In this document: piece after piece, positions 4,565 through 24,260 of the stretch
Layout of the letters: each line of letters opens with the position of its first letter
Position numbering within the stretch: position 1 is the first letter of the stretch
Source of the DNA: Albugo candida
Taxonomy: Eukaryota
Assembly: GCA_040437565.1 (NCBI GenBank)
Contig: JBDOQK010000068.1
Coordinates: 124,001-161,653, forward strand
DNA: 37,653 nt
Reading direction: 5' to 3'
Position numbers and translations under genes: made by a program
The notes under the pieces: generated by a model
Seen by the model: the letters and a program-made list of their open reading frames with translations, nothing else
Told to the model about the DNA's origin: nothing
Databases searched by the model: none

Positions 4565-4619
4565 GGCTACTTATGTGATAAAGTGAAGGAGTTTTGGTTT
4601 TAGGTTTATCGAGGGACGC
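4565..4619 (+). promoter_or_regulatory. Conserved calmodulin upstream module, copy 1
   Basis: GGCTACTTATGTGATAA...TTTTGGTTTT(aggttt)ATC...GACGC; homologous to the blocks upstream of the other four CaM genes. Confidence 0.6.
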
Positions 4620-4676
4620 AGCAGGACTAGACGTTTGCACAGTTTGGATCCAAATAGCTTTTACACCCGCAGACGG

Positions 4677-4692
4677 TCACTTCTAAATTTGC
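4677..4692 (+). promoter_or_regulatory. Oomycete INR+FPR core promoter of CaM1
   Basis: TCACTTCTAAATTTGC matches YCAYTYY..MWTTTNC, ending 27 nt before the ATG. Confidence 0.7.
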
Positions 4693-4719
4693 ATCGAGTA
4701 ATTCATATCTCAATTAGCG

Positions 4720-5169
4720 ATGGCCGAGCAATTATCCGAAGAGCAGATCGGTGAATTCAAAGAAGCGTTCTCACTATTCGACAAAGACGGCGATGGAACG
4801 ATTACAACGAAAGAGCTTGGTACAGTGATGCGTTCGTTAGGACAAAATCCGACGGAAGCGGAGCTTCAGGACATGATTAATGAAGTAGATGCCGATGGCA
4901 ACGGAACTATTGATTTCCCAGAATTCTTGACCATGATGTCACGCAAGATGAAGGATACTGATTCGGAAGAAGAGATCTTAGAAGCATTCCGAGTGTTTGA
5001 CAAAGATCTTAACGGATTTATATCTGCAGCAGAATTGCGTCATATTATGACAAATCTGGGAGAGAAATTAACGGATGAAGAGGTTGATGAGATGATTCGA
5101 GAAGCTGATGTCGATGGTGATGGACAGATTAACTATGAGGAGTTTGTCAAGATGATGATGTCCAAGTAA
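4720..5169 (+). CDS. CaM: Calmodulin paralogue 1 (closest to canonical)
   Basis: 149 aa, intronless, four EF-hands ([48 protein letters not shown]). Confidence 0.98.
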
Positions 5170-7044
5170 GCTATAGGTTAAGTATAAAGACCGCGTGAAT
5201 ACAGCGATGAGTTTCATGTCTGATCTTTGTGCATCGCTGGGTCCCTTTGGAGCTAAACGTTCTCTCCCAGCAGTCGCCGACATTTGCATCCTGTCGCCTG
5301 ACTTTGACTGAATATAGGAAAATCGTAGCCTCGAGAAGACGACCCTCACTATCGTGAAGCTGTCACGTTGGCGTGGCTGGTCTGCTCGCGGCTTTTGTAA
5401 AATTCATTAGTGCGACGACGCAAACAGATAGGCTACGAGGGCCAAGCCACTGTGTATGTGATCCAAATTATGTCTCCAGAGTTGCGAGTCCAAATTTGCA
5501 GCAAAGTCCATATGCACGTCCTACTTACAATTGCGGCATTTGGGCTTCAAGCTTGTCAAGATGCTGCAGTAAAGAGATTACACTCGTAGCATTCCGAGCA
5601 TCACCATTAGAAATATCGTCTCAAATGGTGGTACAAAAGGAAACAATTTGGCATGCTAAATTAAAGGTGGGCCTATTTGAAGTGAATCAGTTTGATAATG
5701 AGCCAGTTGTCCACTTTACTCTGCCCGAGTACGAGTTAAAGGCTATCTAAAGCAAGCGATAAAACGCATTGATTATCCCGCCCGATGAATGACTCAGAGC
5801 ATTCTTCTTGAGAAAGAGCGCAGGTTGCATTATTGCAGCGAGCTACATTGAGTATTTGTCTGCTTACAAAACTGCCATGCACTACATGAAGGAATCCCAC
5901 CTTACACACACTACACGGTGTCCTAGTAGCCGCGTTAGCTTCGCTCCATCAGTCGAATATGATGTGGCAATTGCATGCACCACATTTGAATGCTGATATA
6001 AGCGAGGGACCGGTCGACTATACGACTAGTGCGTTCAGGCGTACAAACAAAATCCTAAGAATGCTGAGAAAGGTGCTCTAGAGTGTCTGCAAGACTTATA
6101 ACCGGGCTAATCATCAGGCGCAACTCCGAACGTGGTAATCTTTCCTTACATCATAAGTGTAAGATTCTTCCCTATTTCCAACGCTGCGTTACTTCACGAT
6201 GACCTTGCGCGTTGAGCTATATATGTAGCGAGCTAGATTTTCGCGAGAATTGTCATGCATCACGTCCTTTCCAAAATCGATCTTGGCCTTTTCTCTTCTT
6301 TCTTGTATTCAAAATCATCAAACTCTTGAGGGCTTCGAAGACAGCTCAAAGACATCTTTCTCTGAACGCTTCTCGATTAATAGATTCCAGCGCTACCGAA
6401 TCAATCCAGGATGATGCGGTGAAGCCAGTGCAGGTAGCTCCGTTCCCGCTCTTCGATTCCACTTGCAATTTCGTCATGCTATCCCTAACGTTTTTTATCG
6501 CGTTCAGCTAATTGAGTGTCACTGATAATTTTTCCTTGCTATCATGAATTTGCTGCATTATCTGTATAGAGATTCTCATATCTTGAAGCTTTTCAACTTC
6601 CATTCTAACACCTCAGCCTTGAGCTCCCTGTGTCTATTCATACGATTTTCCACAGATCTGCGCATCTTCATCGTAAATATTGGAAGCATCGTCCAGCTTC
6701 TTTCAATATTTCGTATTCCGTGTGTGACGAGGATTTAACCGCTTTTGAATCTTCCACGTTCAGTTAAAAGTCGACTTATATTCTTGACGACACCTTGATG
6801 CTATGTTCTTTAAGCTTGACTATCTGTCGCGTTTGCTTATCGCAGCTCAGATTGTTGAAGAAGGTTACGGTTGTGACGTGCGTATGATTTGACAATAGCA
6901 TTTGTAATGCTATACGTATTCCTTTCATTGATAGTTAAAATCACAATAGCATTCTAAGCATCGGCTTGATCACTCGCCAAGAGCAGAAATGACTCTACTG
7001 CCACAACTCCATTTTCGTGAAACCTCCATGTGAAGGGCCGCAAC

Positions 7045-7060
7045 TCATTCAAGAATTTGC
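7045..7060 (+). promoter_or_regulatory. INR+FPR core promoter of CCG effector candidate
   Basis: TCATTCAAGAATTTGC immediately before the ATG at 7064. Confidence 0.7.
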
Positions 7061-7063
7061 ACG

Positions 7064-21370: not shown

Positions 21371-21464
21371 AATGCAAATCCAACCAACTCCTTTACTGAA
21401 TGTCTTGATCTTCACACAAGATAATTTGTAGATTTACGTCGCACAATACATATCTCAATCCGCG

Positions 21465-21914
21465 ATGGCCGAGCAATTATCCGAAGAGCAGATTTGTGAA
21501 TTTAAGGAAGCCTTTTCATTGTTCGACAAAGACGGCGATGGAATGATCACTACGAAAGAGCTTGGTACGGTGATGCGTTCATTAGGACAAAATCCAACCG
21601 AAGCGGAGCTTCACGAGATGATCAATGAAGTAGACGCCGATGGTAACGGAACGATTGATTTCCCGGAATTTTTGACTATGATGTCGCGTAAAATGAAGGA
21701 CACTGATTCGGAAGAAGAGATCATAGAAGCATTTAGAGTATTTGACAATGACCAGAACGGATTTATATCTGCAGCAGAATTGCGTCATATTATGACGAAT
21801 TTGGGAGAAAAATTAACGGATGAAGAGGTGGATGAGATGATTCGAGAAGCTGATCTCGATAATGATGGACAAATCAACTATCAAGAATTCATCAAGAAAA
21901 TGATGGCTAATTAA
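21465..21914 (+). CDS. CaM: Calmodulin paralogue 4 (divergent)
   Basis: 149 aa. [15 protein letters not shown]3 [14 protein letters not shown]4 [13 protein letters not shown]-terminus FIKKMMAN. Confidence 0.97.
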
Positions 21915-22926
21915 GCTGTAGGTTCAGTCTAGTATAAATGATACGTGAATACAGCGAGGTTATCCAAGTTTTTTCCTACATTCATCCCGCTTGAGCTGAC
22001 GCTCTTTATTGCTGCGTATAGTTGACCATTTTCAATTTCAAAAGAGTGCGGCTAATCCGCGAAAAGCTTGTACAATGTCTGCAACTGAGAAGCAAACCTA
22101 AATATACAGCCTATCGTAGAGATCGCTTGCCAGAATCTGCAATACAGCGAGCTTTTCATCGCGAATACAATGCCGTAGCTGTCAACTTGACGCGTAGTAG
22201 CTCCGTTCAACTCGGGCTGCAATGCAGATGTATGTAAATATCGGCTTATTTCCAAATATACTTTGAACTTGTAGGATGAGTCAATTCATTTGTTCACAGA
22301 AAAGTCCAAGCTTTCAAAAATGGTGTTGAGACCTCGCAATCAGATTCCCCAAATATTATCAATATGTTTCCAGGATGCTAAAAGGAGCCTCGTGGACACC
22401 ACATTACGCAAATAAGTGACAGTTTGAATCAAAGTGAATGCCAGCCTGAGAGATTATGTCACAAGCTTAGCCCCCTATCTACTTTGAATGGATGGAAAAG
22501 ATTTATCAAGTGAGACATGTGTATAGCACTACCAAATTGGCGGCTGCATCGCATCGAGGATGATGATCTGGTCATAAATGGGAGATTGTTCTCCTCAGTT
22601 GCGAATAACCTGAAAAGTTCGAGCACATAGGTATTCCGTATGAGAAACAAGACGCAGGGCGACAAATGAGTTACACTGGCAAGCTATCCTTTAGCAATGG
22701 ACTGCAGATCGCTAAGTTTGGCCTCCTACTACTATGATTTAGTAGAATGCAAATCGGCACGAGACCTCTCGCTTCGTCACCCATAAGTTCATGGAGAAGA
22801 GTAGTACGACAAAGCCTATGCACTCACCACCCTCAACAATCAATTGTTATTACATTATATCTTATTGTTGTGAATCGAAAACGTCTCAAACCATTTTATT
22901 GCAAGCCAACGACTGAGAGTGTCGAG

Positions 22927-23345
22927 ATGCACGCTATGGAAAATCAAACCTTTCAGCCATTACCGCACCAATTTACGCTTGGAATTAGATTATAGTCGCG
23001 ATGCTCTACTTGACACACAAGAGGTTGTACTCACCAAAGTATCGGAGATAGAAACTGAAACTGGACGTTTGCAAGACAAAGTTTGCTGTTGTCCAGTGAC
23101 GCGAACCACCCTCGACACGCTTAGCTTATCCTAGCACCGATAATGCAAAATCACATCCTCGACGCGAGGAAAAGAAATACTTATACTCTGGTATCTCTTC
23201 TTTGACTTTTTGAATATGAACGATTAGATCGTCGCCTCATATCAAATACCGTTACGATACCGTTCGGTAATTCGCGCTGTCAAGCGCATCAGAAAACTCG
23301 TTACAATCAACGCATACGATTCAGGACGACTATCTCATAGAATCA
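22927..23345 (+). pseudogene. Snapin/BLOC-1 subunit-like coiled-coil sequence, spliced or degenerate
   Basis: LDYSRDALLDTQEVVLTKVSEIETETGRLQD resembles the Snapin core LDSHVHAVRESQVELREQIDNLATELCRINE as I recall it. Downstream AVKRIRKLVTINA lies after AG-ending intron-like segments. I could not build a clean model. Confidence 0.3.
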
Positions 23346-23644
23346 CGGCCTACGAAATAAAGTATCGCTTCAACAGATTCGACTCACTCTATCACCTTCA
23401 ACTCTCCGGACTCATATGGTGCGATTATCCCCGTTCGTATCAAGGAATATCACGATGTTCTTGTACATCTACACTACAAGAAGAGAATGGTAAGATACTG
23501 ACCAGCGCTGTAATGATCACATACGAGTTACTTAGTTGGGAACAAATGTCGGGGACCGATATGAATCGCAACTTTAGCAAGATAACATTACACAAATGAT
23601 ATGAAAATCCTCGCTGTATTTTACGCAATCTTTTCTACTATAGC

Positions 23645-24094
23645 TTAATTTGACATCATCATCTTTACAAATTCTTCATAATTGATTTTTCCATCACCAT
23701 CAAGATCAGCTTCACGAATCATCTCATCCACCTCCTCATCCGTCAATTTCTCTCCCAAATTTGTCATAATGTGACGTAGTTCTGCAGGAGTTATAAAGCC
23801 GTCAAGATTTTTGTCAAAAACTTGAAATGCATTCCGGATCTCTTCTTCCGCATCGGTGTCCTTCATTTTGCGCGACATCATCGTCAAGAATTCCGGAAAA
23901 TCAATGGTTCCATTTCCATCGGCGTCTACTTCGTTGATCATGTCCTGTAGTTCCGCTTCCGTAGGATTTTGTCCTAACGAACGCATCACCGTTCCAAGCT
24001 CTTTCGTAGTAATCGTTCCATCGCCATCTTTGTCAAATAATGAAAAGGCTTCCTTAAATTCACAAATCTGCTCTTCGGATAATTGCTCGGCCAT
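23645..24094 (-). CDS. CaM: Calmodulin paralogue 5 (divergent, inverted)
   Basis: 149 aa from ATG 24094. [22 protein letters not shown]3 [14 protein letters not shown]4 [12 protein letters not shown]. Confidence 0.97.
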
Positions 24095-24188
24095 CACTGA
24101 TTGAGATTTAAATGAATTGCACGACGCAAATTTAGGAATTACCGTCAATTAAATTTTAAAAGAATTAAGTAAAGTAGCAGGTTGCTAC

Positions 24189-24260
24189 CATACAAATGGT
24201 AAGTTCTTTTGTGTCCCTGGATAAAACCAAAAACACCTTTACATTATTGCATATGTAGCC
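24189..24260 (-). promoter_or_regulatory. Conserved calmodulin upstream module, copy 5
   Basis: Minus strand GGCTACATATGCAATAATG...TTTTGGTTTTATC (24232-24220)...GACAC...TTTGTATG. Confidence 0.65.

Follow-up and report, generated by a model that had tools for sequence, protein, structure and literature searches.

Why should a single stretch of an oomycete genome hold five different genes for calmodulin (CaM), a protein that is among the most conserved in eukaryotes? The question is raised by 37,653 bases of Albugo candida DNA (assembly GCA_040437565.1, contig JBDOQK010000068.1, positions 124,001 to 161,653 of the forward strand), which were analyzed as a whole and are called the window below. 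Open reading frames (ORFs) were called in it with the standard code and ATG starts, and the five CaM genes among them are named C1 to C5 (Table 1). An initial annotation of the same sequence had reported five intact CaM ORFs of 149 codons, all of them different, and we find them exactly where it had placed them. They are five old, intact and individually constrained paralogs that share a common origin in the Albugo genome. As to what such a family is for, we favor, with somewhat better than even confidence, the view that all five are functional genes derived by repeated duplication of one unit and kept by selection, and that they probably serve as subfunctionalized isoforms rather than as a means of raising dosage.

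Age, constraint and flanks of the five genes

All five genes are intronless, and each begins at the first ATG to follow an upstream stop and extends over 149 codons, with neither an internal stop nor an indel. Their ORFs are 82.9-87.8% identical at the nucleotide level and their proteins share 127-138 of 149 residues, such that every one of the ten pairs differs, by 11 to 22 residues. A tblastn search with the five proteins detected no further CaM copy or fragment in the window, the remaining matches being those between N-lobe and C-lobe of the copies themselves or noise at E>2. The initial annotation had described the copies as interleaved with unrelated genes. This is true with respect to the LC7, HRDC and NPC1 genes, all three of which are recognized by Pfam; it does not hold for C3, C4 and C5, which form a tight local group at 19.7-24.1 kb without a convincing gene between them, and of which C4 and C5 are arranged tail-to-tail.

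Nei-Gojobori estimates for the ten pairs place the synonymous divergence (dS) at 0.58-1.99, which is near saturation, and the nonsynonymous divergence (dN) at 0.038-0.075, with ratios of the two (omega) of 0.022-0.129; the highest dS is that of C2 against the other copies (1.18-1.99). Because synonymous sites are nearly saturated, the duplications must have happened long ago, and because this goes together with low dN and omega, the copies are real, old and constrained paralogs and not assembly duplicates. When a single copy is compared with the consensus of the other four, omega amounts to 0.030-0.076 (one-sided Fisher p 1.6e-16 to 1.9e-33). Under simulated neutral substitution, the probability that the ORF survives intact falls from 0.056 at 0.15 substitutions per site to 0.0088 at 0.29 and 0.0006 at 0.5, and indels, of which there are none here, would push it lower still. 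These omega values, together with the survival probability at 0.29 substitutions per site, reject neutral evolution of the extra copies, a possibility that had been raised with the initial annotation.

A related possibility, namely that only one or two copies are functional and the others are unexpressed or decaying while still looking intact, we regard as quite unlikely. It would find some comfort in the third EF-hand (EF3) of C1 and C5, in which Leu at loop position 4 falls outside a PROSITE-type EF-hand pattern (three of four loops match it in these two copies, and four of four in C2, C3 and C4). However, it would have to accommodate the low omega of each copy taken singly (p at most 1.6e-16), the complete lack of stops and indels despite a dS of at least 0.58, the retention of promoter blocks in all five and the fact that C5, with its atypical EF3, is the very copy conserved in Albugo laibachii.

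At the protein level the N-lobe is nearly identical among the copies. Its dS (0.42-2.24) is as high as that of the C-lobe, and the near-identity must therefore reflect selection and not recent gene conversion. Gene conversion is rejected also because, when codons are permuted, the longest identical runs prove non-significant in nine of the ten pairs; only C4 and C5, which are identical over their first 56 nt, deviate (p=0.019, uncorrected). Transposon-mediated duplication was considered and rejected as well, given that between 4091 and 25000 only the CaM unit and the gap duplicate 12461/12992 are repeated, and that no transposon-like ORFs flank the copies. Since the maximum-likelihood tree of the five coding sequences has the shape of a star and its supports are 52 and 60, we claim no order of duplication.

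The initial annotation had credited the copies with unique flanks, and in this it was mistaken. In pairwise blastn of the oriented loci the homology continues beyond the ORF, by about 40-190 bp on its upstream side and by at most about 50 bp on its downstream side. A multiple alignment shows all five to be homologous over ~180 bp ahead of the ORF and over the 40-46 bp that directly follow the stop codon; the duplicated unit was therefore larger than the ORF. Among its invariant blocks upstream of the ORF are CTAcaTAtGtAATAA, TTTTGGTTTTATC (which carries a 6-bp insertion in C1), TTTGTAT and CAATTCATATCTCAAT; of these, CAATTCATATCTCAAT ends 5-13 bp upstream of the ATG and may resemble the oomycete initiator/flanking-promoter core element. 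In C3 (19715-19739) the final 8 bp of CAATTCATATCTCAAT are tandemly duplicated (ATCTCAAT ATCTCAAT) just ahead of the ATG, and C5 carries a 4-bp insertion (TTAA) in the same initiator-like element. The motifs CAT..ATCTCAAT..ATG and TTTTGGTTTTATC each occur four times in the window, solely upstream of CaM ORFs, where 0.02 and 0.14 occurrences, respectively, would be expected by chance. Downstream of all five ORFs there is an invariant AATACAGC box. In those pairs that involve C2, the upstream identity (0.63-0.75) exceeds that at four-fold sites (0.42-0.53).

The window contains 11 gaps of exactly 100 N, none of them inside a CaM ORF. At eight gaps the sequence abutting on the left is directly repeated on the right, over 34-683 bases and at 97.2-100% identity; flanking duplicates are recorded for the gaps at 35 (weakly, 35-134), 3991, 12892, 26279, 27471, 33112 and 36801. 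These duplicates are unmerged contig overlaps, the one of 97% identity probably representing two alleles, and because of them the ORFs at 12289-13467, 31228-34941 and 36346-37576 appear to contain internal repeats, which are false. Could the CaM copies themselves be an artefact of this kind, that is haplotigs, collapsed-repeat errors, or CaM genes of a host or contaminant that were scaffolded together? The number of gaps with duplicated flanks would be in keeping with it, as would the fact that the joins C1-C2, C2-C3 and C3-C4 span gaps, and yet we consider it highly improbable for several reasons. First, the true gap duplicates are nearly or fully identical and sit at gap edges, whereas the CaM copies are only about 81-88% identical and contig-internal; the divergence and the position of the copies thus bear out the initial annotation, according to which they are not gap duplicates. 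Second, every CaM gene is tied, by its contig or by a perfect overlap, to ordinary oomycete-type genes. The contig of C1 (4091-7706) and the BioD-BioA contig before it overlap by 276 identical bases, C2 resides on one contig with the LC7 and HRDC genes, C3 on one with NPC1 (12992-20697), and C4 and C5 share a single uninterrupted contig with the DTW-domain gene (21244-26278). Third, lineage-specific residues and the promoter block are common to all five. Finally, the GC content at third codon positions of the CaM copies (0.42-0.45) matches that of the neighboring genes (0.42-0.47). Over the window as a whole, GC content is 0.36-0.49 in 2-kb windows, which is compatible with the roughly 43% given for A. 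candida in PMC3206522.

Calmodulin identity and the residues that have changed

Pfam recognizes four stretches of EF-hand_1 and two of EF-hand_7 (a domain pair) in each of the five proteins, at E values of 1e-36 to 1e-41. C4, the only copy compared with solved calmodulin structures, matches a 149-residue chain deposited as calmodulin over residues 1-148 (E=1.5e-82), and 248 distinct PDB sequences match it at E<=1e-30. The Ca2+-ligand loop positions 1, 3, 5 and 12 are occupied by D, N or E in 20 of 20 loops; D and N are swapped at loop positions 3 and 5 in EF3 of C5, and EF4 of C2 and C3 has N at position 3. The nine target-binding methionines of CaM, which we take to be those at ORF positions 37, 52, 72, 73, 77, 110, 125, 145 and 146, are all kept in C1 and C5, while M145 is replaced by Lys in C2, C3 and C4, M72 by Ile in C2 and M146 by Leu in C3. 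Calmodulin-like proteins are set apart from CaM by an identity to it well below about 80%, and/or by a changed EF-hand number or length. Since C1-C5 are 87.9-95.3% identical to canonical oomycete CaM and have kept both its length and its four EF-hands, they are divergent CaMs and not calmodulin-like proteins.

The canonical reference is a 149-residue CaM that is embedded identically in Globisporangium splendens (P0025), in Peronosclerospora sorghi (P0026) and in record P0024. The copies in the window resemble it in length, in having the same four EF-hand loops and in being intronless, but none of them equals it: C1 is the closest with 7 differences (95.3% identity, 142/149), followed by C2 with 13 (91.3%), C3 with 14 (90.6%), C5 with 16 (89.3%) and C4, the most divergent, with 18 (87.9%, 131/149). 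The replacements D3E, T6S and A11G/C are present in all five. The combination of E3 with S6 occurs in none of 147 other CaM-like proteins that were fetched and is present in the Albugo-type records P0122 and P0123; the comparison CaMs, 147 here and 145 below, are top-scoring representatives of clusters at 90% identity rather than a census. The sharing of these three replacements and the lack of E3 plus S6 elsewhere in that sample therefore indicate a single lineage-specific origin, and the expansion does look lineage-specific, as the initial annotation had proposed.

Changes that are private to one copy or shared by some of them are concentrated in the C-lobe. EF3 loop position 4 (G97) is replaced in four of the five copies, by Leu in C1 and C5, by Glu in C2 and by Gln in C4. 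Loop positions 2-4 of EF4 are altered as well (I131V/L, D132N, G133N), as are positions 87 and 91 of helix E, and the C-terminal helix shows V143I, M145K in C2-C4, M146L in C3 and K149N in C2-C5, such that four of the five proteins end in Asn and not in Lys. The N-lobe has T27M, at EF1 loop position 7, in C2-C4 and M72I in C2. Copy by copy, the changes include G24A, T27M, M72I, G97E, D132N and M145K in C2; T27M, F100V, R127I, E128D, D132N, M145K and M146L in C3; and T27M, Q50H, D51E, K95N, G97Q, G133N, E140Q and M145K in C4. As many as 12 of the 16 differences of C5 are in the C-lobe, where EF3 adds D96N, N98D, S102T and A103P.

Variable columns make up 7 of 78 positions in the N-lobe vs. 24 of 71 in the C-lobe (Fisher p=2e-4). 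In the general sample of CaMs (n=145), the mean non-canonical fraction is 0.015 for the N-lobe and 0.066 for the C-lobe, which makes the latter about 4 times more variable. The bias in the window mirrors this general pattern and, taken alone, is therefore no evidence of tuning. The identity of the new residues is another matter: of the 33 substituted positions, 24 carry in one or more of the window copies a residue that none of the 145 sampled CaMs has (for example K145, N149, L97, E97, N132, N133 and P103).

For C5 a close relative is on record. It matches the protein annotated as 'calmodulin putative' in A. laibachii Nc14 (UniProt F0X1N7, here P0122) at 148 of 149 residues, the atypical EF3 loop included, the difference being residue 136, which is Q in A. 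laibachii and K in C5. The window accordingly comes from an Albugo other than the Nc14 reference itself. This match and the genus itself agree with the initial annotation, in which an obligate-biotroph oomycete had been suspected. C5 further matches an ENA record (P0123) at 147 of 149 residues and has a protein-database record of its own (P0121). Among its 16 derived residues, 15 are identical in F0X1N7. An isoform of the C5 type is thus already contained in the public annotation of A. laibachii. Our literature search found no paper on a CaM expansion in Albugo or on CaM copy numbers across oomycetes, and the word 'calmodulin' occurs 0 times in the main texts of the genome papers of A. laibachii (PMC3130010) and A. 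candida (PMC3206522), whose supplementary gene tables may list such genes.

Isoform-specific tuning and added dosage

We propose that repeated duplication in the Albugo lineage copied a compact unit of about 670-690 bp, in which a 450-bp intronless ORF is preceded by ~180 bp of promoter/leader and followed by 40-46 bp of conserved 3' flank. All five copies have been retained under strong purifying selection, with Ca2+ ligands and core-promoter block kept, and each differs from the CaM of other oomycetes by a distinct set of 7-18 fixed replacements, most of them located in the C-terminal lobe. As cytosolic Ca2+ sensors, the products would have an N-lobe that is essentially the same in all and C-lobes that are specific to each isoform. 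They would be expected to differ in the Ca2+ affinity or kinetics of the C-lobe and in the target helices that they prefer (IQ or hydrophobic-anchor motifs), so that the target repertoire of a single CaM would have been subfunctionalized and not merely its dosage increased. The term 'differently tuned Ca2+ sensors', used in the initial annotation, is accordingly one that we infer from the positions of substitutions only, mainly from Met145Lys and Met146Leu and from the changes in the EF3 and EF4 loops; both methionines presumably sit in the hydrophobic target pocket of the C-lobe.

The main rival of this proposal is an amplification of dosage accompanied by drift, in which interchangeable copies would raise CaM output, their differences being nearly neutral and tolerated in the small population of an obligate parasite. 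The core promoter block conserved in all five copies and the Ca2+ ligands kept at every position are both what such a scenario would predict, replacements do concentrate where CaM varies in general (in the C-lobe, as stated above, and at positions 87, 91, 131 and 148), and the star-like, weakly supported tree offers no clear hierarchy of isoforms. However, the dosage scenario is weakened by the non-identity of the proteins, by the rarity of their replacements and by the conservation of private residues in C5. In the tandem CaM arrays of trypanosomatids and in mammalian CALM1-3, the copies encode identical proteins, in keeping with a role in dosage or regulation. The window resembles these systems in holding more than one CaM gene, and the trypanosomatids also in that the genes are clustered, but differs from them in that no two of the five proteins are the same. 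Moreover, a scenario of free drift sits poorly with residues unseen in 145 CaMs at 24 of 33 positions, among them the Lys that takes the place of a target-pocket Met in three copies, and with the retention of nearly all derived C5 residues in A. laibachii. At a dS of at least 0.58, drift alone is also unlikely to have held dN at 0.04-0.075 unless each sequence was constrained. We consequently judge mere dosage to be unlikely, albeit far from negligible.

A parallel to subfunctionalized isoforms is found in plants, where CaM genes are dispersed and contain introns. Plant families, such as CaM1-7 of Arabidopsis or SCaM-1 vs. SCaM-4/-5 of soybean, likewise comprise several genes for slightly to moderately divergent CaMs, and they provide a working model for how the same fold can have different target outputs. 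In Arabidopsis, seven genes give rise to three distinct CaM isoforms, and soybean SCaM-1 and SCaM-4 have opposite effects on DNA binding by MYB2 (both from PMC5877526). Plant families, however, include at least one fully canonical isoform, whereas the genes in the window are clustered, intronless and equipped with a common promoter block, and none of them is canonical. In Albugo itself, another family of EF-hand Ca2+ sensors is reported to be amplified: PMC4990929 counts nine calcineurin B-like (CBL) genes in A. candida, as opposed to a single gene in most non-plant species. These are CBL and not CaM genes, and the accessible text of that paper makes no mention of a CaM expansion, CaM serving in it only as the root of the tree.

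Several observations nonetheless weigh against the subfunctionalization that we favor. The asymmetry between the lobes parallels the general variability of CaM and is compatible with merely relaxed constraint, and some of the replacements, those at 87, 91, 131 and 148, concern positions at which CaMs are widely variable. The shared promoter argues for common and not for differential regulation, and in pairs without C2 its upstream identity (0.63-0.74) is no higher than that at four-fold sites (0.61-0.74). If the window and Nc14 stem from very close relatives, the match of 148 out of 149 residues says little about long-term constraint. Homologues were searched for with C1, with C5 and with a profile of the five sequences in a database clustered at 90% identity, the best 120 matches being listed for each, mostly long or duplicated CaM-containing proteins; among these matches the C5 type alone had a recognizable counterpart in another Albugo, relatives of C1-C4 being hidden by the clustering and C1-C4 themselves not appearing either. 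Last, the order C1-C2, C2-C3 and C3-C4 crosses the scaffold gaps at 7707, 12892, 20698 and 21144, and order and spacing across these gaps depend on the scaffolding.

Taken together, the substitution pattern suggests that the universal calcium sensor may have been split into isoforms in Albugo. It is even conceivable, though we hold it to be doubtful, that Albugo is devoid of any canonical CaM, and that five specialized isoforms sharing N-lobe and promoter replace it and partition its targets via C-lobe changes, for which EF3 loop position 4, EF4 loop positions 2-4 and Met145Lys in the target pocket would be the candidates. If so, the white-rust lineage would offer a natural experiment in how a near-frozen hub protein is split in a reduced genome, possibly alongside the amplification of CBL. 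The same 149-residue CaM is present in the Globisporangium and Peronosclerospora records, and against it the five constrained, non-canonical CaMs of Albugo are natural variants at near-invariant positions, among them EF3 and EF4 loop residues and a target-pocket methionine. They constitute a compact system for learning how Ca2+ tuning and target choice may be divided among paralogs, and they flag Ca2+ decoding as potentially reshaped in white rusts, to which the nine CBL genes reported for A. candida point likewise (PMC4990929). Should the isoforms turn out to be redundant, what is left would be only a modest note on a gene family.

Neighboring genes and other open reading frames

The coordinates of the CaM units and of the genes that surround them are collected in Table 1.

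Table 1. Calmodulin units and neighboring genes, in positions of the 37,653-base window
Feature	Position	Strand	Composition or evidence
CaM unit C1	4539-5208	+	upstream block 4539-4719, ORF 4720-5169 (149 aa, stop TAA), 3' block to ~5208
CaM unit C2	8619-9300	+	upstream block 8619-8805, ORF 8806-9255 (stop TGA), 3' block
CaM unit C3	19541-20232	+	upstream block 19541-19739, ORF 19740-20189, 3' block
CaM unit C4	21281-21958	+	upstream block 21281-21464, ORF 21465-21914, 3' block
CaM unit C5	23610-24281	-	ORF 23645-24094, upstream block 24095-24281, 3' block 23610-23644
BioD-BioA-type fusion (dethiobiotin synthetase, AAA_26, plus class-III aminotransferase)	1438-3801	+	Pfam
Roadblock/LC7	9422-9841		Pfam
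HRDC-domain protein	10231-11538	-	Pfam
NPC1-like	13953-18770		Pfam
DTW-domain gene	25133-25651	-	Pfam
Myosin-I	27764-29821 and 30198-31106	+	Myosin_head E=4e-195; Myosin_TH1 E=9e-32
Pyruvate carboxylase	31228-34941	-	Pfam

The myosin-I gene is read as two ORFs, presumably split by an intron or a frameshift. Myosin-I is a calmodulin-binding motor, and the gene lies 3.7 kb from the CaM cluster, a proximity that may be coincidental.

Three further ORFs have features of interest. The first (7064-7834, +) has a signal-peptide-like N-terminus and a CxxCxxxxxG string (CQDCMVIKAG) and runs into the gap at 7707; it had no match in Pfam, and its 7064-7706 part had no usable match in the Atlas. It is probably what the initial annotation had called a 'CCG candidate', the name referring to a class of effectors. 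The second (188-979, -) encodes 263 aa, is Cys-rich and has a hydrophobic N-terminus as well as a C-terminal hydrophobic stretch; no Pfam family matched it. The third (12289-13467, +), also without a Pfam match, looks secreted, is rich in Asn, Thr and Ser and contains acidic CEE repeats, and what looks like an internal duplication in it is the gap duplicate of 97% identity at 12461-12891 and 12992-13422.

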